Part shown: in pieces, positions 16,301 to 53,221 of the stretch
How positions within the stretch are numbered: position 1 is the stretch's first letter
How the letters are laid out: each line of letters starts with the position of its first letter
Assembly (NCBI GenBank): GCA_036785375.1
Contig: JAWMAR010000731.1
Coordinates: 496,001 to 560,000, forward strand
Reading direction: 5' to 3'
DNA from: Leucoraja ocellata
Taxonomy: Eukaryota
DNA length: 64,000 nt
The notes under the pieces: model-generated
Told to the model about the DNA's origin: nothing
Database searches by the model: none
The model's input: the letters and a program-made list of their open reading frames with translations, nothing else
Position numbers and translations under genes: made by a program

Positions 16301-19300
16301 GGAACATGGTTATTGCATGGTGTGTTTTGTTTATGAATTCAGCCTCTGAGATAGATGAAGATGTCGTTTAATGTTCCCAGGGTGTGATGTCAGTTACAGT
16401 TTTTTGTATATTACAGTTTTTTCGATTATCGATAATTCGCTGTATTTTTTGCTAATAGTTTCTGGCTAGTGGAGAAAAATTGTAAATGCCCTATGACATC
16501 CATGAATTAGATGTTGCACGTAGAGGTGAATTTACCACTAGCCTTGTCCCAGTCCTATGATTATGCCAGTTCTGTGGACATGGTTCGCTTGAACTTCTTG
16601 CTATGGATGTGGAGAAATGGATCGCAAATCGAAGATTCTAATATTATGAGGCACAGGATGTAGGAAGGAATGTCCAGGAATGTTCTAGTATGCTGGAAGA
16701 TCAGCTCCTATAAATATCACCACTTCGGTTGTTTGTGTGCGTTATGGCATAACTTTATCTTAACTAATTAAATAATTGCTAGACAGCAGAGTTATCTCTC
16801 AGATTGAAGATTAAATACAGGAAAGCAATCGAGCTACAAGAATAAAATGGATAGAGCTTCTGGGTGAAGAGAGCTAGGGCTGGTGAACATGGTGCAGCAA
16901 GTCTGAAACGCATGTGCAGTAGTGGCACCTGGAGAGACACACGGATGGCACCTTGAATAAGTAAATATCATCATGTTTTGCCAAATAAGATGGTATCTGT
17001 TGTATACCCAGTAAGAAAACGCAGACAGCTGCGTTTGAGAATGCTGCAACTGGAAATTGGTGCAGTGTATCTCTTCATCATTTGTTTCCACCAGCTGTAT
17101 CGGTATATTCAAAGTGGTGGCAGCATGAGGAAACACAATAAAATAATCATATCTCCCTAAAAGTTTTACCCAAGGAGGCGTCCTTTAATCGCTAACATGT
17201 GGCTTCAGATTGTTTCTCTTGTATTTCGTTTCAAGATACAGGGAAAATGGAACACACCAATGGAATACATATTAGTTTGGCTAATCCCTGCTCCCTTTGA
17301 GCCAAAATGAAGCTGACAGTAATCACAAAATCTGCAGGGGTCTGATCATATTTCCAGACTGTTGAGCCTCTCAAACAGCACACTTGAATCTATGGCTTGC
17401 ACATTACAATTCATTACAATGGGGATGGGTTGCAAAAACGAATTAAGATTTCATGAAACTTAAATTTTAATTGTCATAACATCCTGCTTTGGACCAAAGG
17501 TCTATCAGTCCCATCCCAATGTTTAACCTATATAGGTTTTTTTCCTTTGAAGTATTTGACTTTCTTAAATTTACTTTTGCATCTGTTTCCAACCATTTTT
17601 CAAACAGGTATTCTGATCAAGAAATCTTAATGCAGACACTTTTTTGTCTCATGTTCTCTTGCCATTGTTAATCAATTTATACATTTGTCATGCGAGCCTC
17701 CTGTCAGTAGAAATAATTTCTCCTTTACCAAGCCATTCATAATCTTGACTACTTCTTTTTGCACTTCTAGCCAACCTTTCCCGCTCAAAAGGAAATATCA
17801 GTTTAACTTATTTATTTGAACAACTGAGGTCTCTCATCACTACTTGAAAATATTAATACTATCATGCAATCAAATTTTGTGAAAGGCTAGTCGGTTCTGA
17901 CTATTCTCCCTTACCAATTGGATATAAATTTTCACTAAAGCCTTTTACGGAATGATCGCTAGTTCAATAGACAAATTTCTGGATACAATTAATATATGGA
18001 GGAAGGACATTCCAAGATTAATAAGGTACTCTCCACTAAATTGTTCATAGGATTTGGAATTTTCTATCACAAATGAAGCTTATTGCTAATGAACTGCACA
18101 TGCTGTTCAGATGGTAATGAGAAATAGAAAACAATGATGGGAATGGAGAGCACACACAAGATTCTGATTGGAAACTGGCTTCAAAACTCCCAGAAGAGAG
18201 AGAGGAAAAGAGAGGGGGCTGGATAGGAGAAAAAGAGAGAGAAAAGAGGAAAACCAGAGAAAAGAAGGAAAAGACTACATACATCCTGTGATCTGTTTGG
18301 TGGATGTCTGTGTCTTGGACTGTGTCTGTCACTCCACGAAGGACCCTTGTGTCCATTCTCTCTGGGAGTCACTGATCTGTTGCGTCGGCCTTGCAGAGGA
18401 GATTGACTGGGTTCGTTTGTGTCATTCTTGGGCTGCCTGGAAATAGCACTGCGTTTGCTTTTGGAATGTGATGTTCTACGCTCTGAAGATGGGCTGTGGG
18501 AACTGGAAAACAAATAAAAGCAAGTGGCTGATTAAGTGTAACCAATAATCTCTTTGCTGAGTTCCAACATTGGTCAGTGGGTGAACTTTGATTAGTTTTT
18601 AGTCAATGAAGAATAGAAAGCTTGTAATATACTGTTGCACACAGTGCATTTGCGAATACAATTCAAGTACATTGATGACCATGCTCCAGCCTCAATCACT
18701 CCACACAGCTTGCTTCATTGTAGTACCACCTAATCAGAAGGCTATTAAACTTCACCCTTAACCTGTCATGCCACTGTTAAATTTAAAAAAAGTTAATGTG
18801 GCACAATCTGGCACTTGCACATTAGGTATTTGTTGATAGTTTATTTTCTCCTATGCTTGATGAACTTAAGCCCAAATAATATTGTGATCAAATAATTAAC
18901 TAAATGCAGATAAATCATCCATGGCATTGCTGTTTTATCAACAATACTTGGGGAAGTATTACAGCAAGAAAGCATTAACTTATAGAAAATGGGTATTATA
19001 AGCAAGGCATCTTAATGTTGTGAATTTTGCCAGTAACTTCACATAAATATCCATGTTTTGGAATTTGATATTTAAATTGTGATATTAAATATTTTTTGTG
19101 TCTTTACCAATTAAACATTTTTTTAAAATTACAATGTCAGGAATAATCAAAAACAATCAATGGCCTTGGTGGCTTTTAAGCTTTGAGTGAGTGGTATAGA
19201 TGGCAATAGTGAAGCCAAGCAGCATTGTGCCCCAGATGCGCCTTCTATTAAGGGCATTGCCAAAAGTTCAGAGGGATTTTTTAAATGGAGGTGGTTCCAG

Positions 19301-22300
19301 ATATCACTGGAATGAGTTGCTGCAGCTTAGGACCTAACTGTTTGGCTCCAGGACCTTGGTGCTGGTGTGATTGCCTTTCAATTTGCCTTCAGATCAATAG
19401 GCTTACAGGCAGCAGGTTGTGAAGTGGAATCCAGGCCTGTGTATCAGTAAATAGACACAAAAAGCTGGAGTAACTCAGCGGGACAGGCAGTATCTCTGGA
19501 GAGAAGGAATGGGTGACGTTTTGGGTCGAGACCCTTCTACAGAAGATCATCTTCTCCAGTATTGTTGACAGGTTTTAAGACCTGCATGTTAATAGAAAGG
19601 ATACATGGACGCAATGCAAATCTGACGTGAAAGCTTGGGGAAAACATTTAATTTAGATCGCTATTGAAAGTATAGGCTGGCAGCCGTACTTTATCTTTAT
19701 GTTCTATGCCAATTTAGAATCGTTGGTCTAGAGATGAGTACATCTGTTAAAACTGCCCTTGCTACACATGATGAAATAAATGGTCAGATAGGATCAAATG
19801 GAAAGCAAAATGACCTGGGTGCCGACATAGCCTATACACATTTTAGATAGATACATTTTGTCCTTTTTCACACTCTGTTGTTATTTATTTATGAAATCAT
19901 GGTAATATATTAATATATTAATAGGCATATTAAAAAAAATAATAAATGTGTGTTAATCAGTTTTAACTATTATGTTAAGGAACAAAGCAATGATTTCTGA
20001 AGAAGGGTTTTGGCCCGAAACGTTGCCTATTTCATTCGTTCCATAGATGCTGCTGCACCTGCTGAGTTTCTTCAGCTTTTTTGTGTACCTTCGATTCTCC
20101 AGCATCTGCAGTTCCTTCTTAAACATAAAGCAATAATAATGTCTCTCTCCCTCCTCCTTCTTTTCTTGATTCCTCACACTTTCTATCTTTTGTCTGTATC
20201 TTTCTTACTCTTCATCCCCATTTTAATCATTCTCAGAACGCATTTACCCATTGCAGCAATCTGCTCTCTAGGTGGGCTGTAATATAAAGTGCCAAATCAC
20301 TAAACTTCCAGTGTTTCATAAAACAGAATTGGGTGTTACATATTATTTATTCTGTTGCAAGTTTTAGATGTTTAACAGATGGGAGTTACAAATTAAGAAT
20401 ACTGTAGTAATTTAATCTCATTTTGACTAGGATCATGAAATCGGCAGTATGGAACCTTTGAAAGCACTGCTGAATATCTAATTCTATTAACTGCTGGGTG
20501 CTGCATTGAACAGATGGCCTTTGTGATAAAACTTGTAACGTACTGCAGAACACGAGTAATATCTAACCTAAATTAGAAAAGCTCCCATTCTAATTATGAA
20601 TGGGGATAGGTAATGATGGTAAAGTTAACATTGGGGAATTAGGTTTACAGACTGGAAGTCAGAATTTGTATAATAACATAACACCTAGTCTGTTAATATT
20701 CAGCTGAATCTGTGGCATGTAATACTGACCTGCTTAGAGATTTGGAGGAGCTGCGTATGGACGATGCAGACACACTGCGGGAGCTGCAACAGCTTCGTGC
20801 TTTGTGCGCTTTCCGTGGTGGTGACTCACTGGGTGACCTGTTGAGGAAAAGAGGCTTGCATGAGAAATAGACCACACTGAGCAATGTCATTCCTGAGGAT
20901 GTTATCAGCAGCGGATATTTCAGTATAATATAGAATAAGTAAAGAGTATCATTAGCAGACAATCAGAAAACAGCCCTTCAAGCAGAATCTACCTTTCAAT
21001 TAAATCACGACTGATTACTTAATGTATCACAGCATTTCATTATTATTTATAATGTGTAAAAAAAAATTCTATTAATTACACAAAAAACCCCATTCTTTAT
21101 GTTATGAGTACAGAATGCAAGAATTTAGGCCACATTTCCTTAAGTTAGGAAGATTAAAGCATAAATATTTCCTCTGGTTGAAGAATTTAGAATAAATACA
21201 CGACTTTATGAATCAGGCGAGATGTCAGGAGGTATTTCACAATAAGAATATTACAAATGGAAATTTCTCCTCAAAAAGCTGCTGCTAATTCATAAATCTT
21301 ACAATTTTTCTATTCAAAGGTACTCAAAACCTATCTGATCACTTGTTCATAAACCTCTTTTGTGATTTAGTATTACATTAGTTTTATAAGACATCTGCAA
21401 AATGCTTTGAGATGTTTCACAACATTGAAGGGCCTGTCCCACTTATGTGTCCTTGGCAAGCAAATTACGTGACCTCGTGGTCACGTTGAGGCGTACGGGC
21501 ATCGTATGGCCGTGCGGGGCCGGTCCCACTGAGAACCATGGAGGGGTATGTAGTTGTGCGCGACATCGTGCGGGGCTCTGAAATTTTTGTAGCGAACAAA
21601 ATCTTCGCGCGCCAACGGCCTGTGGCGTAACTGACAGCCAATGTGGGACAGGCCCAAGACCCTGGCGCGACGCAACGTCTCACCTTCAACAGCAGCAGAA
21701 GCAGGCAAACGATCGCCGAGCTCGGCCTAGGGCTCACGGCCGTTGCGGTCCGGATCCGCCCCCACTTCTACTCCCAGAGCGGGGCCAAGAAAATTGAAGA
21801 TGGACACAAAATTGTGGCGTAACTCAGCGGGACCGGCAGCATCTCTGGAGAGAAGGAATGGATGACGTTTCAGGTCAAGACACTTCTTTCAGACTGAAGA
21901 AGAGTCTCGACACGAAACGTCACCCATTGCTTCTCTCCAGAGATGCTGCCGGTCCCGTTGAGTTACTCCGGAAATTTGTGTCCGTCTTCAAATTACGTCA
22001 CGCTCTCCAGACGGCTGTGCGGGCGAATGACGTTGCGCGCGACCTTCGCGGGACCGTCGCGCCTCAATGCGACCATGAGGTCGCGTAATTAGCGTGCCAA
22101 GGACACGTAAGTGGGACAGGGGCTTAACGGTATTAAAGCAAATAGTAGTTGTCTAATCATTACGCTTATGAACACTGAACTCCATCTGCCAGTTGCCTCA
22201 ACCATACATTTAGGATTATTGTGCATTGACTATTTGTATTATTGTGCATTGGGTTGGTCTTATTTACAAATCTGAACACTTAGAAGCGTGTCTTTCTTTA

Positions 22301-25300: not shown

Positions 25301-28300
25301 GGAAATAACAGCGCAAAGTGAGGTGGGACAGAGGGGCGATCAAAGTGAGGTGGGTGATAGGTGCAACCATTGGTTCATGGGAGGGGATGAGGTGGGGCGA
25401 GGTGAGGAGACACCTAGAAGGACAGGTGAGTGTGTGTGGAAGGAGAACACTGGGGTGCTGGTGTGTGGTGTAGGTTTGGAAATTAGAACAATTATTTTTC
25501 ATTCCATTGCATTGTAAACTACCAGGCAGAATATGAGTGGTGTTCCCCAAAGTTACAGCTTTTGGTGGCATGGCAAGCCAACATTTCCACTCCCACACTG
25601 AACTGTCTGCCCTTGGACTTCTCCATTGCTAAGGTCAGGCCAACATCCTCATTGGCCTCTATCCCATCTGCCCTCGCACTCCTATTTATTGGAAATCTTT
25701 CCGATCCCCTCTCAATCCTGATGCAGGATCTCAACCCAAAACATTGACCCACTGAGACCATCTGCCATTCTAATTTATGTTCTAGATTCCAGCATCTGCA
25801 GTGTCTTTTGTCTTTAAACACGAAAGCATTGAGCACTATGCTTTATGCTGGTGTCCAATTAGGCTATCTGTTATTTTGGTTTTGGTTACGTAAATCATTT
25901 TGGTTATGCAAATAATTTGAATCCAACATGAAAGAGAAAAAGTAGCATTTACAACAGGCAAATAAGCAGGTGGAACCTATTCTAGGTAACAAATACATTG
26001 TGATGGTGGGCAATAACATTCGCAATTCCTTTGTGTACTTGCGTCCAATTTGTCAGGAAAGAACTTTATTCAGTTGGTCAATTTTAGGTAACCATTTGAT
26101 ATATTTGATTAGAATAGTTTCTTGAATTTTTATTATTATGCATTTATTCAACATTTTAAATTAGGCATTAGAACTATAGAAATGAAAAGAAAAAGAGAAA
26201 AGCTAAAAAGACAAATGTGGGAAACTGAGCTCCACAGGGCTGTGTAATTAGATTATTTGGCATTATCATGAACTCTGCGCCAAACTCTTATAAGATTATA
26301 TGAATAAGAATCACCATGGACCAACATCTAGCATTCAGGCCATCTCTGTGAGCAAGAAGCAGCTTATATCAAAGGCTGAATCCTGAGCCGCTAGGATAAT
26401 CATTAATAATTTAAACATACCGCCTTCTTTGTTTGCTTCTGTCTTTGCGTTTGGTTTTAGGGCTTGTAGACCTACGGAGAAAATTAATAAATAAAAATCA
26501 GGGGAGTAAAATTATATAACCCAATATGTGTGTAGACTTCCTTAGGAGTACTTTAGATTGCAGACTTCCTTCAGAGCAGATTTCAACAGTATGTGTGGTT
26601 AAAATACCTCCCCCCCCCCCCCCCCCCAAGAGAATAATACTGCTACTCATTATAATAAAAATGTGGCAAAATTTGATGAACAATATACTTTACCACAATT
26701 TCCTTGCAACACCTGCATGAAGTACTTCCAGGTCAAAGGGGAGTTGCTTCCATTCATGAGATGCAGCATTAAATTTCATGAATGGAACAATTCTATTAGA
26801 CAACAATTTTAATTGGATTCATGACCACCCATTATGATGGACATTTACCATTTAAATTGCGACATAATTCACGCAATTAAGATATTCAAGAAGGTATAAT
26901 CTTTATTTATTCTTGCTTGATATTTACGGTAAGTAGTTATTGGACTAAAACCTGGGTGCAGAAAATGTTGGGGCAGGAACAATCGGGGTTTGCTGAAGAC
27001 AGTACCAACATGTTTTTGTATAAAACTATTTCTGAACTTCTGAAACGTATGGCTTTAATTTACTGGGTATGTCACCTAATGTCAGAGTCCCCTAATACTT
27101 TGGAAATCAAATCAATTCCTACAGAAGAGGTCATAGAGGAAACGGACAATCGTTTAGGATAGCTAAATATAATTAAACCTAGTCACAACATGATTTTAAA
27201 AGGTAAATTATGTTTGGCAAATCTACTTGAATTCTTTGAGGACATAACAGGGAGTTGATGGAGGGGAACATGTAGCTTTAGTGTAAATTCACAAAGGGCA
27301 TTTGACAAGATGCCACATAAAGGCTTGTGCATAAATTAAAGGCCCATAGAACCAGAGAATGTGTGTTAGAAAGGACTGTAAACTGGCTGTCTCATAGAAA
27401 ACAGAGATAGGCCCAAAATGCTGGGGTTACTCAGCGAGACTAGGCAGCATCTCTGGAGAGAAGGAATGAGTGACGTTTCAAGTCAAGACCCTTCTTCAGT
27501 CTGGCAGGTAGTGACTAGTGGGGTGCGGCAAGGCTCGGTGCTGGAACACCAGTTATTTTACAAGATATAATAACGATTTAGTCGATGGAATTAAATGGAA
27601 AAAGATGGAACAGCTCCAAGTTTACGAATGACACAAAGCTGTGTGAGCTGCAAGGAGAATGCTATGAGGCTGCAGGGTGACTTGGATAGGATGAGTGAGT
27701 GGGCAGATGCATGGCAGATGAAAATAATGTGGATAAATGTGAGGTAAATGGGTATGCTTGTACATCAGTCACTGAATGCAAGCATGCAGGTACAGCAGGC
27801 AGTGAAGAAAGCTAATGGCATGTTGGCCTTTATTGCGAGAGGATTTGAGTTTAGGAGCAAGGAGGTCCTACTGCAGTTGGACAGGGCCCTGGTGAGACTG
27901 CACATGAAGTATTGTGTGCAATTTGGGTCTCCTAATTTGAGGCAGGACATTATTGCTATTGAGGGAGTGCAGCATATTTTCACCAAGTTAATTCCTGCGA
28001 TGGCAGGACTGACATAGGATGAAATAATAGGTCGACTGGGCTTGTATTCACTAGAATTTAAAAGGATGAGAGGCAATCTTATAGAAACATATAACATTCT
28101 TAAAGGATTGGATAGGCTGGATGCAGGAAACAAATTCCCAATGTAGGGGGGAGTGCAGAACCAGGGGTCACAGTTTAAGAAGAAGGGGTAGGCCATTTAG
28201 GACTAAGATGAGGAAAAACTTTTCACCCAGAGAGTTGTGAATCTGTGGAATTTACTGCCACAGAAGAGAGTGGAGGCCAATTCATTGGATGCTTTCAAGA

Positions 28301-31300
28301 GATATTTAGATTTAGCTCTCAGGGCTAATTGAATCAAGGGATATGGGGAAAAAGCAGCAACTGATTTTAGATGATCAGCCATGATCATATTGAATGGCAG
28401 TGCTACCTCAAAGGGTCGAATGGCCTACTCCTGCACCTATTTTTCTCTGTTTCTATGTTTCTATTTTGTGGCTATCTTTCATTTAAACTAGCATCTTCAG
28501 TTCTTTCCTACTCATAGAAAACAGAGTTCAAATAAATATGTACTTTTTCACTGGAAGGAGGTAACTAGTGGAAAACCTCAGGGAGCAGTTCTTGGCCGCA
28601 ATTGTTCATGATTTATATTAATGATCTGAAGGGAGATGTTGTAAGCAAAATTTCCAAATTTGTTGATGGTCCAAAAAATAGATGGAAGGCCGTATTATGA
28701 TACTGCAACAGGATACAAGTATATCGAGTGAATGGGCAACATATTGGCAGATGTAGTTTAATGTGTGGAAGCTGGATTGGTAAGAGGCAGGTTATTATCT
28801 AAATGGAGAGAGACTGGAAATGATTGAAGTTCAGAGAGACATAGGTGTAATAGTAAGAACTCAAAAAAGAGTTAGGATCTCAATGGAAGGACTACAAATG
28901 AGAAGGCAAACAACATTTTGTCTCTCAAGGGATTGGAGTTTAAAAAAGGTAAGTTTTATTGCCACTTTATAGGATGATGATGAGGCCTCCTCGACTACTG
29001 CATACAGTTTTAGTCCACTGAACTAAAACTGAAGAAATATTAACTCTAGAGACATTACAAAGGATATTCACTGGCTGATTCCAGGAATGAGAGGTTGTCC
29101 TATTAATTTAGACTAAATATTTTTTGACATATTCCTTGAAGTTTAAATTCCTCTTTGGGAATAACACAACAGCCATAAATAACATTGTTCAAATTATTTG
29201 ATAATCATGCATTACATAACATAGAGGTAATTATTTTGATTTGCCACTGTCCACAGCCAATAAAGGTTTTTCTCAAGCATACCATCCTGAAATGTTTCAC
29301 CTTAGCAAGTTTGCAAAGGAGGTACCACAGGATATGGAACTCCATGTACTTGTCACACCCAATCAGTACCCCGTTCCTGGCTTCTCCCCATATCCCCTGA
29401 CTCCGCTGTTTTTAAGAGCCCTATCTACCTCTCTCTTGAAAGCATCCATTTATTTATTCCCTGATGGAAATTTCCCTTGTCTCAGGCTGAAAGGAATTCT
29501 CTCTATGTTTGTATTTTACATGTCTACAACAGCTTTTACACATTTTTAAGCTTCTTGTTAGATCTCAAATTCAACGTTCTTATTCCTTATTAATACCTCA
29601 GCCCTCCATTGCCAAATTTAGATATTTCCTCAATGTTCAAGATTTTTCTTTTTTGGCAGCATTGTATGACTTTATCTTTGATCCAATATTACCTTTAAAT
29701 GTTCCTGTCAGCCATGGTTGGACCAGTTTACCTATTTATTGTTAGTGCCTTACAAGAGATATATAATTTGTAGTAGTCAATGAAATAATGAATTCATTAA
29801 TTATTTAAATTGTCTGTTTACTGTTGTACATTTAATGTAGACTCCCAATTTACCACAATTTGCTTGTGCCTCATACCTTTGTAGTTTGCTTTGTTTAGAT
29901 TTAATACTAATTTTGGACTAAATTAAATAAATTCCCATCTCTGTATATAATTCTACCATATTTCCATCAGTCTTCCCTAAAATCCCCTTAACCACACAGT
30001 TATTTAGTTAACTTCTCACTGTAAAATACTGGATCTAAATAACCTGTTCTCTAATTGGTTTATTGACATATTTATCCATAAAACAATCTTGTACAAAGTC
30101 CTGGGACAAAGAAGATTTCTGCAGCATACGCGACTAGCTGATGCCCCTAATCCCAATAGCACTAGATGTGTGATCATTGACAGTAGGCAGCTAATGAACC
30201 TTTACAATGGTATCCAATGCTTACCTATGCTTACCAATGCCTCCTCTTTTTTCGGGAACCTGAATCAGACCCGTATAAGATGAGAAGTGACTAAGTGTAG
30301 GGGTTTACTCGATGTAGCCTCAAGCACAATGCTCTTTGATTGCTCCATAAAGAAAATACTTGCAAAATAAATTTACGATTCCATGTATCAAGGATACTTA
30401 AACAAGTGGTTTATTTCAAAGAGATTAAGACATTCTCCTAGTTTTTTTTTTATCACCGGATCACAACATTAGGCAATTATTGTGGGTCACTTTTTCCATT
30501 TTAGAAGACAAAAATACAAAGACCATTTTCTTTAGTAAGAAGAATTAACACGAGCATTTGGAAAAACCAATGATGCACAATGTTCATTTGGATATCAAAG
30601 AGCTGCTGCACAATTTCTAAGGTCCTACCTTTAATGTTCTGAGAAGAAAGGTTACTGACCTGAAATGATTACCATCTCATACCACAATTGCTGCCTGACC
30701 TGCTGAGTATTTCCAACATTTTAGATTTAATATATAATTTTGCATGTGACTTAAGAGTCAGAGAGCCATACAATGTGGAAACAAGCCCTTCAGCCCAATA
30801 GCCCACACCGGCCAACATGTCCCATCTACGTTACTCCTACCTGCCTGCGTTTGATCCATATCCCTTTAAACATGTCTTATCCACGTACCTATCTAAATGT
30901 TTCTTAAACATTGCGACTGTACCTATGTCAACTACCTCCCCCGCAGCTCCTTCCATACAACCACCAACCTTTGTATGAAAAAGTTAGCCCTCAGGTTCCT
31001 ATCACATCTTTCCCCCCTCACCTTAAACCTATGTGCTCTGGTTCTCAACTCCCCTACTCTGGGCAAGACACTCTGTGCATCTACCTGATCTATTCCTTTC
31101 GATGGATGATTTTGTACAACTCTATAAGATCACCCCTCACACTTCTGCACTCCAAGGAATAGAATCCTAGCCGGCTCAACCTCTTCCTACAGCTCAGGCA
31201 CTCGAGTCATGGCAACATCCTCGTAAATCTTCTCTGCACCCTTTCAAGCTTGATAAAATCTTTCCTATAACAGTGTCCAAAACTGAACACAATAATCTAA

Positions 31301-34300
31301 ATGCGGCCTCATCGACGTCTATACAACTGCAACATGACCTCCCAACTTCTATACTCAATACTCTGAGTGATGAAGGCCAATGTGTCAAAAGCCTTTTTGA
31401 CCACCTTATCTACCTGTGATGCCACTTTCAACACACTATGTACCTGTACTCCTAGATCCCTCTGCTCAACAACACCCCCCCCCAGAGCCCCACCATTCAT
31501 TGTGCAGGTGCTGCCTATGTTAGTGCTCACAAATTACCCCATTTCACATTTCTCTGTATTAAATTCCATTAACCATTCTTCAGCCCATCTGCTCAGCATG
31601 AGTTAACTTCCACATCACATATGAACAAGTCGTTGTGTGCCTGAGATGACTAAATAATAAATCTGTGTTGAACTGGGAAGCCACAAAGGTTAAATCCCGT
31701 TACTTACCTGGTATATGTTGGACATCCCACTATCATAGTTCTGTATTCAACCAAATAATCTCTTCCAACAGCTAATCTCCTTGATCACCAACTTTCTGAT
31801 CTCCAAACTGACACTGGCACTGACCACAGATCTCCTATTAGACCCTTATTGATCTTCAATCCCTACTGGACTCGAGATGTGATCAGACATCTTACTGCGG
31901 CCTCCTTCCCCTGGGAAGCTGAAATGCTACCTTGGGAACCATTTAAATTTGTAGTTGCAGACCACAACTTAAAATTAATATTGGCATGCCTTGCAACAGG
32001 GAGCCAAAATAACAGAAACAACTGTCCATGGAACTCGATGGTACAAGAATTATCCGGACCCCTCACTTTTCCTCGTGTGCAAGGCTTTAAAAAAGATTGG
32101 CTGGAAACAGATTCAAAATTGCAGTGTCATCTATTATTGATGTTATATAGGTTGCTTTAACTATATCATTCAGATAATGTGCTGTGGCCAAGGATGTGAG
32201 AAAGACATTACGATTTTCTCCAGGGATTGTGCAGACGGTCGATTCTGCATTAGATGTGCTATATACCTGGAGGGGTCTGGTATGACTACAGAAGAACAGA
32301 AGCAACTCCACCTGTCTCTCTTGTGTTTCTTCCCACTCTTCTTTTTTCTCTCTTTCCGTGATGATGAAGAACTTTCGCAGCTATGAAGAAAAACAAAACA
32401 TTTTAAATATAACAATTGTCTCTTTCTGAAAATACTTGCATCTAGTACAAGAAGAACCAACCAGGAAACAATGCGTCAGAAAAATAGCTTGCTGGCGTTG
32501 CAATTTTATTTACAGCAGAGGAAGACAAATCAGCAATTCTCAAGCTAGACTTCTCTACCCCTGGTGTCTTTTTTTGTGGCTTTTTATGTAAGCAAGTTTA
32601 ATGTGCTGCGTTTCACAAAATTGCCCGAGCCACATTACATTATAGTCATAGCTTCCCAATAAATGAATGAGTGGGAAGATGGAAATAGAATTTGCAGAAG
32701 AGCAAAACAAAATTAAAGTTGTTCAGGGCGTCAGGAAGTTCCTCTTTGTGCAAATGCTAATGGAAATCTGGAATGCTGACTTCACAAAGCACTGATGAAA
32801 CAGGGAGTACAAAAGTGAGCTTGATAGCTTGTATATAGAAGTGTATTAATGGATTTGGAACTAGAGAAGTAGACAGAGTTACGATGTACATCAGTTTCGA
32901 GGTACTAAATGGAAGAACAGACTCGCAGAATATAAACAGACAATCATGGACCAGGTTAGGGAGAAAACATTAAGGTTTACAGGTTGACTACATGCATGAT
33001 AATTGGAAATGCTGAGAAAGCAGTGAAACAGATGAGCAAGAGTGATTGGTAAAGAGAGAAAGCCAAGTTTCAGTCTGTAAACCACTCAAAGCACAAGAAG
33101 CCATCATGCTATTAAAACAGAAAATGTGCTGTGTCATATTGTAAATTGTGGGACAAATATCCCCATAGATAAGCAGCAAGCAGCATCAATAAAGCTCATG
33201 GGAATATCAATTGCTTGGTATTTATAGAGGAGAGTGTTTCAGGACTGCACTGCAAACAATTTTTAAGAAGGTTTTGTCTGTAATAAATCTAGTGAGGACA
33301 TTGGTTGTACTGAAACTTTGCAGTGAAAGCAGACCAGGATTGAATCTAAACAAAAAGCTGCACTGTTTGCCATGTTTTTACATTTGAACTGCGAAAAGAA
33401 CCCCATATTAGCATTATTAGTGGGGTAAGCCATTTATGATTACTTCCTACATTGATATAATGGAAATAAATGAAAGGGCATCACGTAACAAATCTTAAAA
33501 AGGTAAGAATTATCTGTCATAATTTCAGACTACAATGATCTTCCAAAACCATACTGAGTCAATGGTACAAAGGCATTCTACACCCTTTAGTTTTAGTTTG
33601 GTTTTGAGATACAGCGTGGAAACAGGCCGTTTGGCCCACTGAGTCCACACCAACCAATGATCACCTGTTTACTGGTTCTATCATAGGAACTAGGGACAAT
33701 TTCTAGAAGCCAATTAACTTACAAAACATGCATGTCTTTGAAATGTGGGAGGAAAACGTAGCAACTGAAAAAAGCCCATGCATACTCCGTATAAACAGCA
33801 AGATTGAACCCAGGTCTCTGCCGCTGTAAAGCATCAAGAATTTTTTTTTCACCCTTGTTGTAGAAATCTAGAATCACTTTTATTAAAATGCTGTGAACAC
33901 TTGGTCAATTGGAGCTATCAAGTCAGATATATAGATTCTTGTTCAGTAAGCAATCAAGAAATAGGGACTCAAGGTGTAGGACATGTACACTCCATTTTTC
34001 TGTTTTAAAGTCTTTTATTTTTATAAATTGAATATCTATAAATACTTTTTACAGATATCTATGTAGTTTTATACAATATATTAATGTCCAGTCACAGTAA
34101 CCAAACACAAAAATCCGCAATATACGGGGTTGAAAAAGGAACAGGTTTTTATGTGGTCAAAACTAGTGTTGAAAGGATTAAACCTGCACTACAAGGGAGA
34201 TTCTACACTTAGCCGCACTCTGATGAAAGGTGGCTTTCATAAATAAAACGTTTGAATGAAATGTTCTCCCCTTGTAAATCTTTTTTCAAGATTTAATTTA

Positions 34301-37300
34301 TGGGATTTTTTTATACATTTAAAAAAACTATCAAATATAAGAAACTAAAAACACCAGGAACTGCAGATGCTGTTTTATTTATTAAAAAAGGGACACAAAG
34401 TGCTGGAGTAACTCAGCAGGTTAAGCAGCATCTCTGGAGAACATGGATAGGTGATGTTTTGGGTCCGAATGCTTCTCCAGTCTCTGAATCTGCAGAAGGG
34501 ACCCGGCCTGAAACGTCCATGCTCTCCAAAGATGCTGCCCGACCAACTCAGTTGCTCCAGCACTTTGTGTCCTTTCTTTATACAAGAACCGAGAATATTT
34601 TTTTGCCTGCTTTTATTGCCTGCCCCTAACCACCTGCTGTTTACTTTTCACTTCTTCAAAGTCTGAAATGCAAAATCCACTGTTAGGTGTCACATAAGAA
34701 AGGATTTTGAAATAAAAGAGTTAACAATTTTGAACCCTGTGCAGTTTCATCTGGAAAACTAGGTGAGACGATGTTACCTTTTGGAACCTTACTGAAGCTT
34801 AATACAAACCTCCACCTGTCAAACATTGCATTCCATTGCAGCAAGATTTTTTGGAAATATGCACCAAAAATTCAACAAGCATCAAGAAAAAAGACAGATG
34901 GTTTCCTCTTGATGAATGCTTTGTACATGGATTTAATCATTCCAAGAAGGAATAGCACTTAAAAGATGCTATGATGCCTCAGTAGGTCTACTCTGGGCTC
35001 AGAACCTGAAATGACACCTCATTTTTGAAATACACAAAAAAAACCCAACTTTGTTTAATTTAATAACACAATCTACTTGTATGGTAGGTATCGACAATTC
35101 ATTATGACTAATCGTGAAGCTTCCTATCCTTTTCATGGCATCCTTATTGTACAACACCAAAAGACATTTACCGGATTTTGTAGTGCCCCGATTTCTTCTT
35201 CTTCTTCTTCTTGGGTGGTGGTGAGGGAGAACTGCTTGATTTCCTTTTCTTACTTCAGTGGCATGAGAAAAAATTATTCAGATATAAACACAATAAGTTA
35301 CTTAATGTGGGATAAGAAATCTTTACATAGGATATACAATATATAATCAGACCATATTCTCCCTGCAGATAAGATACACCTTCTCTTTAACTACTCTATC
35401 ATCACATTAATTCTCGATCATGGAAGACATGTCACAGATGCAAACTCTCAATTAATTGATCAAGACAATATAGCTTTGTCAAAGTGATGCACACAGCTGT
35501 CTAGACAGTGTTAGGTATTGTGTCAGAGCAAAAAAACACATATATTGACATACACAAGATTGGTTCCCTTCTTTTTTCACGATTGGGACCTAAACCCCAG
35601 ACAACAAAAGGTTTGTTACTGAGTAGAGACCAACTGATTCCCCACAGAAGAGGAAGGTGAATCTGCTTCAGACACATCCTATCCCTATGTCCCCTTTAAA
35701 ATTATTCTCATGTGTGCAAATTAACAGAGACAAGTGCCACGGCATGTAACAGATTCAAGCCTCATTATTGTGCTGCATATTATACTGACCTGCGCCTTCC
35801 CAAATATTGTGCTGTGAACACTAGCATCACAGAAACCAAGAGGGGAAGAGATGGTTTCACTTAACCTTTTGAATTCATTGTTGCCCAGCAAGAGATTTAT
35901 GCTCCTGTTATTTGTTCATGAAGGAAATAAAAATCTGCCCTATGTTCGGAGTTTTTAAATGTTTACCAGTGACCTCACCTCAAGACCCAATCTTCATGAG
36001 GGACTGTGCTTGATGAAGTGAGCAGAAATTTGAAAGCTGATATCAGTAAAAGTATTACACATCAGTAAAACTATCAGTGACTATAAACATTACACTGGGT
36101 GGGACATTGCAACCTTCACGTGGTCCACCCTGCTTCGACGAATGCAATCAATCTGGCGTGCACAATCAAGTAAGATCAAATAGAACAAGTTGTCCTACAA
36201 TTTTACGCTGTGCACGTCATATGCAAGAAGAAGAATTACACAAACTTCTTTGTTTCTGCATTGTGTAATTTTTCCATATTAGTCCTCCTTCTTTAGGAAA
36301 TGCAGGTTCCCATCTCTCATCATAGATGTCTCCTCGGTACCACGTAGCCCCGCCCTCGCTCCCCCTCTCCCGAGTCACAACAGAGACAAACTCTCCCTAG
36401 TCCTTGCCTTTCACCCCATCAGCCGTTGCATACAATACATAATCCATCAACATTTTCGCCACCTCCAACAGGATCCCAACACTAATCAAATCTTCCCATC
36501 TCCACCCCTTTCCGCCTTCCGCAGAGACCGTTCACTCCACAATTCCCGGGTTAACTCATCCTTTCCCAAACCACCCCCTCCCCAGGTACCTTCCCCTGCA
36601 ACCGCAGAAGATGCAACACCTGTCCCTATTCCTCCTCCCTCCACTCTGTCCAGGGACCCCAGCAGTCCTTTCACGTAAGGCAGAGGTTCACTTGAACCTC
36701 CTCCAACCTCATCTACTGTATCCGTTGTTCAAGATGTGGACTCTTATACATTGGTGAGACCAAAGGTAGACTGTGCAATCGTTTAGCTGAAAACCTTCGC
36801 TCAGTCCGCCTGAACCTACCTGATCTCCCGGTTGCTAAACACTTTATTCTCCTTCCCATTCCCACATATAGATTGGTCTCCTCCATTGTCTAAATGAGGC
36901 TAAACGCAAATTCGAGGAACAGCATTTCATATTTCGCTTGGTCAACTTCCAACCCAGTGGTATGTATATTGATTTCTCTAACGTCAGGTAGCCCCGGCAT
37001 TCCCTCTCTCTATCCCTCCCCACCCAAGTCGCACTAGCTTCTCGTTTTCACCCAACAAGCAGCTAACAATGGCCTGTTTCCTTCATCATCATTACCTTTT
37101 TGCTTATCTTTCATTCATTGTTCTTTATCTCTCTACATCCCTTATCTCACTTGTCCCTTACCAGTCTGAAGAAGGGTCTTGACCCAAAACGTCACCCATT
37201 CCTTCTCTCCAGTGTTACTGCCTGTCCTGCTGAGTTACTCCAGTTGTTTGTGTCTAACTGCAGATGCTGGTATACACATATTAAATAAGAAAATGCAACA

Positions 37301-49300: not shown

Positions 49301-51735
49301 TAAGCTTCCTTTAGAACCATGGACAATACTAATGCATCTATGCTCCTATTTTGGAATGAATAACATTTGGTTTCATCAGGCCACCTTTCCCAACATCAGA
49401 ACTACATGGAGAGCTTCTCAGCCAATTCTGTTCCCAAAAACTGTTCGTAACCCAAATTGTTTGCAAGTTGGAAATGCATTCTTAAAAGGGGATACGAGAA
49501 ACTGCAGGTGCTGATTCACACAGAGAACCCATGCAGTTGCAGGGAGAATGTACAAACTCCATACAGACAGCACCTGTAGTCAGGGTTGAACCTGAGTCTC
49601 TGGAGCTGTAGGGCAGAAACTCTACCGCCATGCCACTGTTCCTCCAGTTTGGATGTGGCCTCACTCTAGGAATGGAAATTGGGAGAGGAGTTAAAATGGT
49701 TAGCAAATTGGAGATCCCCAAGGTCTTGGCGGACTAAATGCAAGTGTTCGGCGAAACGGTTGCCGACTCTACACTTGGTCTTGCCAATGTAAAGGAGACC
49801 ATATCGGGAACACCGTATGCAATAGATGAGTTTAGACGAGGTGCTCATGAACCACTGTCTCACCTGGAAAGTGCGCTAGTCCCTGAGGTGAGGGAGGAAC
49901 TAAAGGGACAAGTGTTACATCTCTCATGGTGCAGGGGAAAGTATCTGGTGACAGGATGGTTTGGGTGGGAAAGGATGAATGAGCCAAAGAGATGTGAAGG
50001 GAGCATTTTCTGCAGAAGGTGGAAAGGGGTGGGAATGGGAAGATGTAACTGGTGGTGGGATCACATTGAAGATGGCGGAAATGTCGGACGATGAGGTGTT
50101 GGATGCGACGGCTGGTGGGGTGAGAGACGGGGACCAAAGGAGCTCTATTCTTGTTCCATCTGGATTGGGGAAGTGAGAACAGAACTGCAGGGCACAGAGG
50201 AGATGTGGGCAAGGAATTAATCTATGACAGCAGCGGGGGGGGGGGGGGGGGAAACCACTTTTACTGGAATGTTCTAGAATGGAAAGCCTCATTTAGGGAG
50301 CGTTTGCAGCAGAGAAATTGAGAACAGGGGATAGTGTCTTTGCAGGGGATAGTGTTTACTTGACTTGCTTAAGCCAATATAGTCCAATTAAGCGTTTTAA
50401 ATCACTTTCACCTCATTTTGTAACAGGGAATGTTATGGGAGAGAAATAGATGATGTTGCTTTACAAGTGATTTGATTAAAGGGTGCATTTAACGAGGTAA
50501 ATATATACATGCGTGGGCTGTTTAATTATTATTTTTACAAATGTAGTTACTGAATGCCTCACAGACTTTCCACTTATTGTAATAGTCACGTCCGATTCCA
50601 CAATAACATGACAGCGATGACTGAGGTTCATCAATGCAGTAATTAATACATCGATTATAAAAAATATTGCAAACCTATGATCAATTACAGTGAAACATTC
50701 AGGGGCCCAAATGTACATATGAAAATATGAAATTCATACCGACTACCCTGCATGGACCCAAGAAATGACACCAGATTTACAACATCCTACTGTGATTGAT
50801 AGATACCACTTGACATTCAGTGAAATACATTTCTCTGTTTACTGTAGAAATAAAGAACTACAGATGCTGGTTTACCCCCAAAAGGCACAGAGTGCTGGAG
50901 TAACTCGTCGGGTCAGACAGCGTCTCTGGAGAATATATGATGAGGTGAATTCAGAAGAAGTATCCCGACACGTAACGTCACCTATCCATGTTCTCCAGAG
51001 ATGCTGCCTGACCCGCTGAGTTACTACAGCACGTTGTGTCGGTTTTCGCAGTTTATTTTTCAGACTGTGGGCAACACAGGGTCCCAGGACACACTTGTTG
51101 CTCCAAGTCCGTTTCTCTCGCTGCTTTTACTTTGGACAATGTGTACCAGTGGGAAATGGGCCTATTCTCAAGCTTCCTAATACCTGTCTCTGACACACGG
51201 AGGTCAAGATAGGCTTTTCCACATCGTTCAATGGTAACATTCCACCTGCGGTAATGTTTTCACAACGCTCAGCAAAGGTAATTCAGCGATGCAAATTTCA
51301 ATTTAAATTTTGTTCATAATATTGAACAAAATTACAGTGGTGTTTCCCGATATGGCAAAACTGACTCGGGATAAGGATGCTCTAGGTAGCGCTGTAGCGA
51401 AATGGGCAGCGGAGCATTGGGGGGAAAAAGCATCCATTTTACATACAAGAAAAATGAGCATCAAGCACAACATTTTAATTATTCACAGTGTAACGTCACC
51501 TTTGCACTTAGACATCAATTTAGAAAATAGGGTAGCATTCTCAGGTATGGCGAGGTGTCGTTAAACAATGAAACATGCCACACGCCACTAACCTGCTTTC
51601 ATATGAGCTGACAGGCTTTCTGGAATCAATGTTTTCCAATGGCATACTCTGAGGCCTTGGGGTGGCCACTGTTTGCAACGCTCCTCTCCAAAACTGCTCA
51701 AAGAGCTGCTTCTCATCGCATTCTGCCCTTGTCAT
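1133..51735 (-). CDS. srrm3: Serine/arginine repetitive matrix protein 3-like splicing factor (multi-exon, 3' end runs off the left edge)
   Basis: Nine exons splice in compatible phases (2,2,2,2,2,2,0,2) into 1310 nt with no stop. Motifs SSSSPSPPPKKKKKKK, KKKSGKKHKRDR and SDSGSRKKRRH match human SRRM3 (SSSSASPPPKKKKKKK, KKKKSVKKHRRDR, SDSGSRRKRRH, recalled from memory) in the same order. Confidence 0.88.
2484..2588 (-). mobile_element. Short Penelope-derived insertion with an intact hammerhead-like core and a 16-bp direct flanking repeat
   Basis: tggggtgaacagcaaa at 2468-2483 and 2589-2604; the minus strand reads ctgaagaagggtttcggcccgaaacgtt. Confidence 0.85.
2549..2576 (-). ncRNA. Minimal hammerhead ribozyme core (PLE type)
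   Basis: CUGAAGA-A-GGGU(UUCG)GCCC-GAAA-CG-UU: both conserved boxes, a stem II hairpin and a palindromic ACGU stem III. Confidence 0.6.
4219..4565 (-). CDS. srrm3: srrm3 exon (347 nt), RS-rich: STDSRSLSPGAEPRSASKSPK...SGRSKSTRAK
   Basis: Acceptor tttttctcctgctgcag|, donor aa|gttagt, phase 0-2; overlaps ORF 4122..4547. Confidence 0.9.
10660..11530 (-). mobile_element. Degenerate Penelope-like element 3' fragment
   Basis: The minus strand gives remnants such as EQLFLFHLSS..PSGINIGFS, then a pyrimidine-rich tail and a degenerate terminal motif; parallels 36850-37270. Confidence 0.65.
12780..14530 (+). mobile_element. Rex1/Babar-type non-LTR retrotransposon, decayed RT and 3' end
   Basis: KATGPDGIP, CLNDCCPVA..VVMKCFDRLV, LQFIYHHNRSMGDAI, KKTKELIV motifs; ctcttga-type tail. 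Confidence 0.85.
13575..13699 (+). mobile_element. Penelope-derived short insertion nested in the Rex1 element
   Basis: 15-bp duplication cattggtggacaatt at 13560-13574 and 13700-13714. Confidence 0.85.
15285..15505. mobile_element. Penelope-derived palindromic insertion
   Basis: Inverted arms around cagtctgatgaagggtctcgacccgaaacgtc. Confidence 0.8.
15375..15402 (+). ncRNA. Minimal hammerhead ribozyme core (PLE type)
   Basis: CUGAUGA-A-GGGU(CUCG)ACCC-GAAA-CG-UC with a GUC cleavage triplet. Confidence 0.6.
18283..18502 (-). CDS. srrm3: srrm3 exon (220 nt): SHSPSSERRTSHSKSKRSA...RHRHPPNRSQD
   Basis: Acceptor ttttatttgttttccag|, donor gat|gtatgt followed by a pyrimidine-rich tract; phase 2-0. 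Confidence 0.9.
19451..19545 (-). mobile_element. Penelope-derived short insertion
   Basis: Single arm of the same repeat family. Confidence 0.75.
19996..20124 (+). mobile_element. Penelope-derived short insertion with hammerhead-like core (19997-20024)
   Basis: ctgaagaagggttttggcccgaaacgttgcc; same subfamily as 2484-2588. Confidence 0.8.
20730..20837 (-). CDS. srrm3: srrm3 exon (108 nt): SPSESPPRKAHKARSCCSSRSVSASSIRSSSKSLS
   Basis: Acceptor cttttcctcaacag|, donor ag|gtcagt, phase 2-2; GC-rich island in an AT-rich intron. Confidence 0.9.
21428..22125. mobile_element. Non-autonomous DNA transposon (MITE, Harbinger-like TIRs) containing a Penelope-derived palindrome at about 21796-21990
   Basis: About 65-bp imperfect terminal inverted repeats (agggcctgtcccacttatgtgtccttggc... 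/ ...gccaaggacacgtaagtgggacaggggct); internal extra TIR copy at 21640-21657; CpG-rich. Confidence 0.75.
24515..24885 (+). mobile_element. CR1-type LINE 3' fragment
   Basis: Matches the CR1 end at 27960-28460 and 1-320. Confidence 0.65.
25190..25820. mobile_element. Degenerate Penelope-like fragments in inverted arrangement
   Basis: Degenerate terminal motifs at both ends with purine-rich and pyrimidine-rich arms. Confidence 0.5.
26421..26471 (-). CDS. srrm3: srrm3 exon (51 nt): STSPKTKRKDRSKQRR
   Basis: Acceptor aattttctccgtag|, donor cg|gtatgt, phase 2-2. Confidence 0.9.
27170..29130 (+). mobile_element. Nested CR1/HER1 LINEs: old copy interrupted by a Penelope palindrome that itself holds a younger CR1 3' half (about 27500-28465)
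   Basis: VQQAVKKANGMLAFIARGFEFRSKEVLLQL..ALVR..YCVQF RT-tail motif; 16-bp duplication ctcatagaaaacagag at 27391-27406 and 28511-28526. Confidence 0.85.
30235..30270 (-). CDS. srrm3: srrm3 small exon (36 nt): SDSGSRKKRRH, with a non-canonical CGG acceptor as sequenced
   Basis: Peptide is near-identical to recalled SRRM3 SDSGSRRKRRH. Donor is tg|gtaagc; the acceptor reads cttctcatcttatacGG| instead of AG. Confidence 0.75.
30755..31600 (-). mobile_element. CR1/HER1-type LINE 3' fragment
   Basis: EQRDLGVQVHSVLKVASQVDKVVKKAFDTLAFITQSIEYRSWEVMLQLY. Confidence 0.85.
32312..32380 (-). CDS. srrm3: srrm3 exon (69 nt): CESSSSSRKERKKKSGKKHKRD
   Basis: Acceptor tttgtttttcttcatag|, donor ag|gtggag, phase 2-2. 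Confidence 0.9.
33590..33835 (-). mobile_element. HE1-type tRNA-derived SINE, partly deleted
   Basis: Collinear with the SINE at 60025-60335; CR1-like tail. Confidence 0.7.
34355..34580. mobile_element. Penelope-derived palindromic insertion
   Basis: Inverted arms gacacaaagtgctggag.../...ctccagcactttgtgtc. Confidence 0.8.
35172..35252 (-). CDS. srrm3: srrm3 exon (81 nt): KKRKSSSSPSPPPKKKKKKKSGHYKI
   Basis: Acceptor tttttctcatgccactgaag|, donor cg|gtaaat, phase 2-2; poly-Lys motif typical of SRRM3. Confidence 0.92.
36290..37270 (+). mobile_element. Penelope-like element 3' part (GIY-YIG endonuclease remnant plus terminal hammerhead-like motif)
   Basis: SSNLIYCIRCSRCGLLYIGETK and EEQHFIFRL..PSGMYIDF remnants, followed by ctgaagaagggtcttgacccaaaacgtc at about 37166. 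This links the short repeats to Penelope-like elements. Confidence 0.88.
39040..39400 (+). mobile_element. Rex1/Babar LINE 3' ORF end
   Basis: IESVITSSITVWYGN...IISDPSHPANHLFQSLPSGRRLRS..TRFKNSFFPSAIRTLN. Confidence 0.85.
39574..39735. other. Assembly gap (N run)
   Basis: Run of n characters. Confidence 1.
40950..41070 (-). mobile_element. Penelope-derived short insertion
   Basis: Same repeat family, truncated second arm. Confidence 0.75.
41853..41948. mobile_element. Collapsed Penelope-derived palindrome with flanking duplication
   Basis: acagctataat is present on both sides; the centre of the palindrome is deleted. Confidence 0.75.
42395..42950 (-). mobile_element. CR1/HER1-type LINE 3' fragment
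   Basis: MKGLDRVYVERMFPLV..RGLRIKGCSFRKEMRR..F.Q.IVNL.NSL. Confidence 0.85.
43050..44100 (-). mobile_element. Rex1/Babar LINE 3' fragment
   Basis: YRFADDTT..GQISNNDET, LCQDNNLSLNVCKTKEMVI motifs; aataaactaaac tail. Confidence 0.85.
44560..45150 (+). mobile_element. Old degenerate LINE fragment
   Basis: ILGVTFDQILSW-like remnant; resembles 53570-54090. Confidence 0.45.
45540..45775. mobile_element. Penelope-derived palindromic insertion
   Basis: Inverted arms around cttcttcagtctgaag. Confidence 0.8.
46350..47050 (+). mobile_element. Unclassified GC/CpG-rich non-coding retroposon-like element
   Basis: GC-rich core; 3' end aataaagtatgattatgatt resembles LINE tails; no credible ORF. Confidence 0.5.
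47550..47685 (+). mobile_element. Penelope-derived short insertion
   Basis: ctgaagaagggtcaagaaccgaaacgtcacc... Confidence 0.75.
48390..49245 (+). mobile_element. Penelope-like element: terminal motif followed by RT remnant
   Basis: LIFNMDVQSLHT, GTRVGPSY, ELVDFINFTTNFHPALKFTWTISD motifs. Confidence 0.82.
49520..49640 (-). mobile_element. 5' tRNA-like head of HE1-type SINE
   Basis: Matches 60220-60335. Confidence 0.7.
49645..50360 (-). mobile_element. Penelope-like element GIY-YIG fragment
   Basis: SSKLIYCIRCSRYGLLYIGKTKCRVGNRFAEHL..ANHFN. Confidence 0.88.
50845..51050. mobile_element. Penelope-derived palindromic insertion
   Basis: Degenerate inverted arms. Confidence 0.7.
51593..51735 (-). 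CDS. srrm3: Initiating coding exon with SRRM4-type N-terminus: MTRAECDEKQLFEQFWRGALQTVATPRPQSMPLENIDSRKPVSSYES
   Basis: ATG at 51735 (G at -3); an in-frame TGA lies just upstream of the alternative ATG at 51747. Donor AG|GTTAGT is phase 2 and compatible with exon 35172-35252. Aligns without gaps to recalled human SRRM4 MASVQQGEKQLFEKFWRGTFKAVATPRPES. Confidence 0.85.
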
Positions 51736-53221
51736 GTCCGAACACATTTTGCATCATTTATGTGCTGCTGGCACATGCACCGTGAGCAGACACACAGATT
51801 AAAAAAATGGATGCTCGAGGAGTGCCTTCCAGTTGAATGAAGAGGGTGAAGCAGATCCTCCTCAGCTCTGTCTATGCTCTCACGGTGTGGTTGTAACGGC
51901 GCCTGACATGTTCTTGCTTGTGCAGCACGTAGTACAGGCAGCGTTCGCAGCGCTGTCGACTTTACACTGCACACCTTTTCACAACACTGGCTGCAAGACC
52001 ACAATAAGAACCCTCAGCCATGATCCCCAGGGCTTGCCACTGAGGGATTTATTCTATTGCCTTGTCAGAGAAATGTCCAGAATTTCCCTTTTCCTCCCTT
52101 CCCCGATTAAAACATCTAAGCAAATGCTGCATCCTCAACTTCAAGGCAGCATTTATTTACAGAACTTCAAAAATCCATCATAAAGTATAAAGGCAATTAA
52201 ATAGTTCGGATTTTTGTGCAGTGTAGCCTTTCAATATTCTTGAAGACAGCAGCGTTTCAATGTGAACTGCAAGGTAAAAATCCTCAATAACTGGCTCCTC
52301 AGAAAACCAGGATCCCGGATTTCCCGAGACGCAGGATTCAGTCAATAATGTTCAAGGATTCCGTCTACAATGCCTACGATGTTATGTTAACGGTACAATG
52401 TGCCGGTGGGAATTATTTGATCGGGCATCATACGCTTTGAAGCAAGTGTAAATATGTGTTTCTGCAAAGTGAATTGATTTTAAATGATGTTATCCTGAGC
52501 TACTACTTTCCCCTAAACTATTTGCTTCTCTGAGAAGTGAATCACATAGTGTTTTTATTACACTAAGCAAACCACTATAAATATAACACAGTACTGTAAT
52601 CATTTTCAGATGAGATTCCACCATTTAGTAAGGATCCACATTACTGTTCCCATGTTTTCCCAGAGTCGGATATGCATCACGAAACTCATGTTTGAAACCT
52701 TCACAACATAAATTGGAGCTCCCAGGTCAAACAACTGTAAGCAGTCACAAATAAACATGGCACACAACCCACGTCAAATCCATGGGTAGAATTGTGTTTA
52801 AAAACAGTCAAGCACTTTGTTCATTCCCACCTTCTTCCCATTATTTCAATTATGGATGGCCCTGTATTCTGAAACTATACCCACCATCTCTAGATTCCCC
52901 CATGAGAGAGACATCCTCTTGGCTTCTATTCTGTTAAACTCTCTCAGAATATTATATATTTTAGATGATACTCTCCAGTTCACAAATTTAAATGAGCCCT
53001 TTCAACCTTTCCTCATAAGTTAACCTCTTCTCCCCACAAATCAACCTGGAGAATCTTCTCTGACTTGTGTCTGCTACAAATAAATCCCTCCAATATTGCA
53101 TCTATACTCCAGGTATAACCTCACTAACACCCTGTATGGTTGCACTAAGATTCCCTGCATTCATACTCCATCCTCTTTGCAATAAAGGATAATGTTTAAT
53201 TTTCCTCGAAGAAGCAGGGAA

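Follow-up and report, generated by a model that had tools for sequence, protein, structure and literature searches.

An SRRM4-type start exon in an srrm3 intron of the skate Leucoraja ocellata, possibly inherited from before the SRRM3/SRRM4 duplication

In a 64-kb stretch of the genome of Leucoraja ocellata (GenBank assembly GCA_036785375.1, contig JAWMAR010000731.1, positions 496,001 to 560,000; G000:C731:496001-560000 in our labelling, hereafter the window), we found a coding exon of the type that opens SRRM4, lying within an intron of srrm3. This exon, called here the start exon, is almost certainly a real, old and protein-constrained SRRM4-type start exon inside the srrm3 gene of this genome. 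Its position, its phase and its silent divergence make inheritance from the gene that preceded the SRRM3/SRRM4 duplication the simplest reading, which these sequence features make highly probable; that the exon is still expressed is also probable, if a little less firmly so. For both together, that is, a first exon of ancestral origin that srrm3 has retained as an alternative and still uses, we estimate a probability of about 0.6. Coordinates refer to the window unless a contig label is given, and all srrm3 exons are on the minus strand.

An SRRM4-type coding exon inside srrm3

Firstly, the exon is built as a start exon. Read from the ATG at 51735, it comprises 47 codons (MTRAECDEKQLFEQFWRGALQTVATPRPQSMPLENIDSRKPVSSYES, running MTRAECDEKQLFEQFWRGALQTVATPRPQS...SYES) and 2 further bases, and ends at a phase-2 donor, CAG/GTTAGT, at 51593. 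The start codon, the upstream in-frame TGA and the donor phase had all been proposed in an initial annotation of the window, and we confirmed them in the sequence. The ATG at 51735 stands, but a second in-frame ATG at 51747, 12 bases further 5', had been overlooked; it adds MCSD to the peptide (MCSD-MTRAE) and has an A at −3, a better base there than that of 51735. In a low-depth contig of a related organism the codon at 51735 is CTG (depth 3.6, so that it may be an error) and 51747 is unchanged; 51747 may be the real start. The exon lies between the second cwf21 exon (exon B) and the SPSPPPKKKK exon of srrm3, on the same strand. There is no AG between the in-frame TGA and the two ATGs; hence the peptide is not an in-frame cassette behind cwf21 and requires an ATG of its own. 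The exon had also been said to splice in frame to the acceptor at 35252: the frame agrees (phase 2-2), while the splice is a prediction. An AlphaFold model suggests, with little confidence, that residues 7-28 of the peptide form a helix (predicted local distance difference test, pLDDT, 68; predicted template modelling score, pTM, 0.36).

Secondly, the exon is a true homologue of SRRM4 (nSR100) exon 1, as its earlier designation implied. Among 11,903 reading-frame fragments from 264 kb of the contig, it stands out against a profile made only from 151 SRRM4 N-terminal segments: its E value is 9e-16, with all 44 positions covered, and that of the next best fragment is 0.14. Both exons have a start codon, the core EKQLFE.FW.G....VATPRP.S and a phase-2 donor, and 20 of 43 residues (47%) are identical to exon 1 of the genome's own SRRM4. 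The likeness extends downstream to a homologous SPPP..KKKKKKKS exon, a serine/arginine-rich (SR) body and the eMIC domain: the exon at 35252-35172 and SRRM4 exon 3 (81 and 78 bases) are both phase 2-2, with 14 of 22 aligned residues the same. Unlike SRRM4 exon 1, the start exon sits in srrm3, 3' of two cwf21 exons, evolves much faster and has MPLEN in place of IIVAS. Moreover, no homologue of SRRM4 exon 2, which lies between exons 1 and 3, was found in C731:528-620 kb, a search covering all but one masked stretch in the 16-kb intron, and the same search found no homologue of exon C of bony-vertebrate SRRM3. The SRRM3 exon between cwf21 and SPPPKKKK of bony vertebrates is also missing from the Callorhinchus and Narcine models. 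Other searches with the peptide gave little: no match in Pfam or PDB, no Pfam family covering it, two candidates, neither significant, when it was used alone as a protein query, only unrelated bacterial clusters, under 0.85, in the ESM Atlas, and no match in exact look-ups of two read-through frames. A metagenome scan returned three loci, one of them (L063) a teleost-type srrm4 exon 1. The N-terminus of SRRM4, which hardly varies, is labelled 'srrm4 specific N-terminal domain' in the legend to Fig. S7 of 10.1101/2021.09.08.459463.

Thirdly, the host locus is srrm3 and not srrm4. The cwf21 exons, which the initial annotation had expected beyond position 64000, are present upstream, on this contig and in the same orientation (Table 1), with a PF08312 match at C731:618946-619017 (E 6.5e-8). 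The locus matches SRRM3 of Narcine bancroftii (P0001) in ten segments, at 79-96%. The eMIC is of SRRM3 type (SPSFMEPRRIT followed by SARKRPIPYY), whereas a second locus, on contig C132, reads SPSHLEPRRIT; among 257 proteins compared, SPSFMEPRRIT occurs with cwf21 in 79 and SPSHLE.RRIT with the SRRM4 N-terminus in 81, and the SRRM4 N-terminus is combined with cwf21 or the SRRM3-form eMIC in none. A gamma-type 14-3-3 exon, which we take to be YWHAG from its gamma/eta tail motifs, lies 87 kb downstream; MDH2 exons lie about 470 kb upstream on contig C8, a second copy of the locus (98-99% identical) with the same order of cwf21 exons, start exon and SRRM3-type eMIC. MDH2 and SRRM3 are also adjacent in the fused protein model P0037, and MDH2, SRRM3, YWHAG is presumably the human gene order; HSPB1 was not found between these neighbours. 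The genome's srrm4 is a separate gene on C132; it has an exon 1 of its own (the peptide and its Amblyraja radiata counterpart are identical across 43 residues), an SRRM4-type eMIC, no cwf21 match and a Sds3-family neighbour, SUDS3 being, we assume, the usual neighbour of SRRM4. The domains (PF08312 cwf21 and PF15230 SRRM_C/eMIC), exons and MDH2/YWHAG neighbours of the host are those of vertebrate SRRM3. These results agree with the SRRM3-type gene body and the cwf21-less SRRM4 described at the outset, and contradict the possibility, raised at the same time, that the locus is plain srrm4.

Age of the exon and competing explanations

Between the start exon and exon 1 of the genome's own SRRM4, 27, 32 and 14 of 43 bases are identical at codon positions 1, 2 and 3 (position 2 against 3, Fisher p 2e-4); the proportion of synonymous differences (pS) is saturated and that of non-synonymous differences (pN) is 0.29. 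Where the residue is the same and its codon degenerate, 13 of 18 codons differ, as do 21/24 in the eMIC exon, 8/14 in exon D and 78/183 in YWHAG against its paralogue; the last-exon srrm3/srrm4 pair was left out of this calibration because the C132 copy is frameshifted. Under a simple Jukes-Cantor model, neutral drift on one branch since the split would leave 49% identity at position 2, and the observed 32/43 has a probability of ∼6e-4. Silent sites are saturated while the residues K, L, W, G, V, P, R, S and I are conserved, which indicates that the exon is old and was selected as protein; silent divergence and the neutral-decay test together speak against both a recent copy and an ancient relic. 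Compared with 22 SRRM4 peptides, identity is 19-24/43 and the skates do not rank highest: it is 20/43 to skate SRRM4 and 20-24/43 to tetrapod or lungfish SRRM4. The exon is identical on C8 and C731: the 3127 bases aligned hold 27 substitutions, none of them within it, which is not significant by itself.

Several observations weigh against an inherited exon that is still in use. In an unrooted tree of 23 rows (21 hand-picked SRRM4 hits and two sequences from this genome), the end branch of the start exon is 2.95 against a median of 0.05, and with the loss of the IIVAS stretch this implies that constraint has been relaxed and is weaker than on SRRM4 exon 1. In approximately unbiased (AU) tests, grouping with cartilaginous-fish SRRM4 is not rejected (p 0.28, 0.10 and 0.07). 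Hence the earlier proposal that the exon is older than the duplication holds as to an old constrained homologue and falls short as to an old srrm4 copy, which p values of 0.07-0.28 do not reject. Among the 63 profile hits described below, none could be recognised as coming from lamprey, hagfish or amphioxus, so the tree is without a root. In a low-depth contig of a related organism (X1), both of two coding differences change a residue, outside the core. Upstream of the exon there is no CpG island (16 CpG per 600 bases against 29 for srrm4, a count of 16 being reached by 8% of windows), 600 bases hold ten ATGs against four for srrm4, and the out-of-frame ATGs at 51776, 51757 and 51754 open frames of 13-14 codons over the start of the exon. 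Mapping of reads of X1, X2, X9 and X10 on 51460-52600 favours neither side, with no record over the donor from a run shown to be RNA: X1 yielded a 200-base contig (51664-51866) and X2 a 158-base one (51802-51954), both of which stop short of it. These two runs extend to intron bins as well and may be DNA, and nothing mapped from X10 or from X9, of which 6 in 100 of the run was read. Finally, a cluster of sites resembling repressor element 1 (RE1), the REST target, is found at the cwf21 start and not at the start exon.

Four other explanations were considered. In the first, the exon is ancestral and was long used, but is now a silent relic from which no cwf21-less isoform is made. The long branch, the lost IIVAS stretch, the overlapping upstream ATGs and weak promoter signs would suit this, as would the absence of the isoform from 204 SRRM3-side proteins, three clusters of which are from cartilaginous fishes. 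However, the frame, the donor and the core residues are intact, and low-depth contigs of two related organisms, X8 and X1, have no indel in the coding part and do have indels just upstream (X8, over 51572-51761, shows 3 differences and 0 gaps). Since neutral decay from the time of the duplication is rejected, silencing would have to be recent, and we consider such a relic unlikely, though the likeliest of the four.

It is improbable that the srrm3 intron acquired the exon from srrm4 at an early date within cartilaginous fishes, through exon shuffling or ectopic conversion, and that it was then recruited, in which case it would say nothing about the gene before duplication. A clade with cartilaginous-fish SRRM4 withstands the AU test, silent saturation sets only a minimum age, and the exon is in no annotated bony-vertebrate SRRM3 examined, all in favour of such a copy. 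It would not explain why the exon stands where gene duplication would place it, 5' of the homologue of SRRM4 exon 3 with the same strand and phase, why its silent divergence is as deep as that of paralogous body exons, or why it has RKP, as lobe-finned SRRM4 does, where the SRRM4 of this genome has RRS; its flanks, moreover, have no similarity to srrm4 except repeats.

An internal exon spliced from exon B at an acceptor at 51990, whose early stop lowers SRRM3 output, is very doubtful: the candidate acceptor is pyrimidine-rich and a frame is open from 52013 to a TGA overlapping the ATG at 51735, but protein-level constraint on an SRRM4-type peptide in another frame would go unexplained, and a relative's contig has a 1-base deletion at 51923 (depth 2.9). 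That the locus is srrm4 itself or a mis-assembled srrm3/srrm4 chimera, as the N-terminal peptide and the duplicated haplotype copies of this assembly, including an inverted partial srrm4 copy, might suggest, is virtually excluded by the agreement of C8 and C731 on exon order, by the mere 47% identity to the true SRRM4 exon 1 on C132 and by synteny fitting srrm3.

The RE1-like sites form a subject of their own. Five of them, with ≤2 mismatches, lie within 300 bases at C731:619933-620224 (L024/L025), 0.7-1.0 kb 5' of the first cwf21 exon (exon A), and 264 kb of contig hold 6 such sites against 0-2 in 8 shuffles; REST likely controls the cwf21 start of srrm3, judging from these motifs. Two further candidates were rejected: an RE1-like hit near the start exon (51921) has 3 mismatches and is at chance level (2-5 per shuffle), and an RE1-like 25-mer common to the srrm3 intron (C731:564454) and the region upstream of srrm4, tried as a paralogous regulatory element, is a multi-site repeat.

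Gene model and predicted product

The features of the locus are collected in Table 1; besides the eight body exons in the window, two eMIC exons lie 2.2 and 9.5 kb past its base 1.

Table 1. Features of the srrm3 locus in window coordinates, with contig coordinates for exons outside the window.
Feature	Position	Strand	Remarks
cwf21 exon A	C731:619191-618947 (window-equivalent 123191-122947)	-	71 kb upstream
cwf21 exon B	C731:573922-573821 (window-equivalent 77922-77821)	-	26 kb upstream; phase-2 donor
Presumed 5' leader and promoter region	51748..52600	-	Putative; CpG composition, candidate acceptor 51990, upstream ATGs
In-frame TGA closing the frame upstream	51754..51756	-	Sequence; overlaps out-of-frame ATGs 51757 and 51754
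SRRM4-type N-terminal coding exon (start exon)	51593..51747	-	srrm3 intron; ATG 51747 or 51735; phase-2 donor; sequence, homology, profile
srrm3 exon KKRKSSSSPSPPPKKKKKKKSGHYKI	35172..35252	-	81 bases, phase 2-2; SRRM4 exon 3 homologue; predicted acceptor common to exon B and start exon
srrm3 body exon CESSSSSRKERKKKSGKKHKRD	32312..32380	-	69 bases; 96% to Narcine SRRM3 P0001
srrm3 exon SDSGSRKKRRH	30235..30270	-	36 bases; non-AG acceptor; possibly skipped or decaying
srrm3 body exon	26421..26471	-	51 bases; 94% to P0001
srrm3 body exon	20730..20837	-	108 bases; 92% to P0001
srrm3 body exon	18283..18502	-	220 bases; 79% to P0001
srrm3 body exon	4219..4565	-	347 bases; 79% to P0001
srrm3 body exon	1133..1387	-	255 bases; 82% to P0001

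If the start exon is an ancestral first exon still in use, transcripts would begin just 5' of it, from a promoter or from a non-coding upstream exon; CpG observed/expected over 52101-52600 is 0.78-0.90 (97th-98th percentile of the window), with a G+C fraction of 0.38-0.41. Its donor and that of cwf21 exon B would then compete, either for the acceptor at 35252 or for the next one in phase 2, at 32380. Joined to ten downstream exons, the start exon opens 553 codons with no stop through to the eMIC, and the cwf21 route opens 621, also with no stop. Most srrm3 junctions are phase 2-2, so that the frame survives when the 81-base exon, absent from Narcine isoform X2, or the 36-base exon is left out. 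The predicted product is a 541-557-residue SRRM3 that lacks cwf21 and has an N-terminal helix of SRRM4 type, followed by the SR body and the eMIC. In 10.1101/2021.09.08.459463 and 10.1101/584003, the eMIC is reported to be needed, and to suffice, for the inclusion of microexons and cwf21 to be dispensable; such a product would thus be expected to promote inclusion of neural microexons as SRRM4 does.

Other features of the gene were seen alongside. The 36-base exon (L066) has CGG for an AG acceptor on both contig copies, which differ at its donor and in two codons; in this species splicing may pass over it, or it may be in decay. Like targets of SRRM3/4, the acceptor region 35252-35275 has a TGC near the AG and a pyrimidine tract that is interrupted, and self-regulation is possible. 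The 16-kb intron at 36000-51400 is rich in high-copy repeats, and a long integrase-like retrotransposon frame adjoins MDH2 (L041). The last exon of srrm4 (L057, C132:2676528-2676818) has small indels relative to the skate proteins P0121 and P0296, one of them inside the eMIC, most likely assembly errors. On the same contig, C132:1207890-1581115 and 2676528-3069920 hold the 5' part of srrm4 and the Sds3-family exon twice, in opposite orientations, probably through a haplotype mis-join, and an SRRM2-type cwf21 exon on contig C225 is duplicated in the same manner. Exons for the second half of an SRRM2-type cwf21 at C46:9631306 and C225:1407156 are 79% alike over 94 bases, which suggests two SRRM2-like genes in this genome.

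Novelty and meaning for the SRRM family

We compared the start exon with known proteins from both sides. The SRRM3-side set, reached through cwf21, holds 204 proteins (120 listed of 181 matches, and their cluster members), in which clustering can hide isoforms and cartilaginous fishes are represented by three clusters, with no skate. None of the 204 scores with either profile, so that the isoform is not annotated in these srrm3 proteins, a point on which the initial annotation had made its novelty depend. With a two-sequence profile, all 120 matches listed of 251 are SRRM4-type; the 63 matches among 1.84 billion representatives comprise 62 SRRM4-type N-termini and one repetitive frame, and none of them has cwf21 or an SRRM3 eMIC. 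No description of an SRRM4-type exon in srrm3 was found in the full-text literature, taken apart from Torres-Mendez 2019, Nakano 2019 and supplements, and the accessible portions of the articles compared, including PMC12626424, 10.1101/2024.11.29.626094 and PMC9303857, describe no such exon. Within the same accessible literature, no function of the SRRM4 N-terminus turned up.

When ancestral alternative first exons are shared out after duplication, one start exon per copy, the outcome is a form of subfunctionalisation; the partition here would differ in being incomplete, with one lineage keeping the two-start state. A related case is invertebrate Srrm234, in which, according to PMC10551640, PMC8797185 and 10.1101/584003, an alternative last exon encodes the eMIC. 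There too, alternative isoforms of one gene correspond to domains split among vertebrate paralogues after duplication, but that case concerns the 3' end and SRRM2 against SRRM3/4, whereas ours concerns the 5' end and SRRM3 against SRRM4.

The history we propose is that the Srrm3/4 ancestor made both N-termini, that srrm4 kept the internal start only, and that srrm3 retained the cwf21 start, with the internal one surviving beside it in this lineage. Reciprocal loss of first exons, suggested in the initial annotation, would be a conjecture beyond this, the comparison with bony vertebrates having covered their annotated SRRM3 proteins. Its wider form stands, on the sequences compared, at about even odds: the gene before duplication would have had two starts, cartilaginous fishes would express both from srrm3, SRRM4 would have fixed an existing internal isoform, and the exon or a remnant of it could lie in srrm3 introns of other vertebrates.

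SRRM3 and SRRM4 are described, in PMC8797185 and PMC10551640, as master regulators of neural microexons. The finding belongs to gene history within a known family and is not a new mechanism; it concerns microexon regulators and the evolution of duplicate genes. As a diverged natural version, the start exon would mark by its conserved residues what the SRRM4 N-terminal peptide needs. If our reading is true, the origin of the 'srrm4-specific' N-terminus moves to before the SRRM3/SRRM4 duplication, and SRRM4 would be a gene that kept one of two ancestral starts, rather than one that lost cwf21 and gained a new start.

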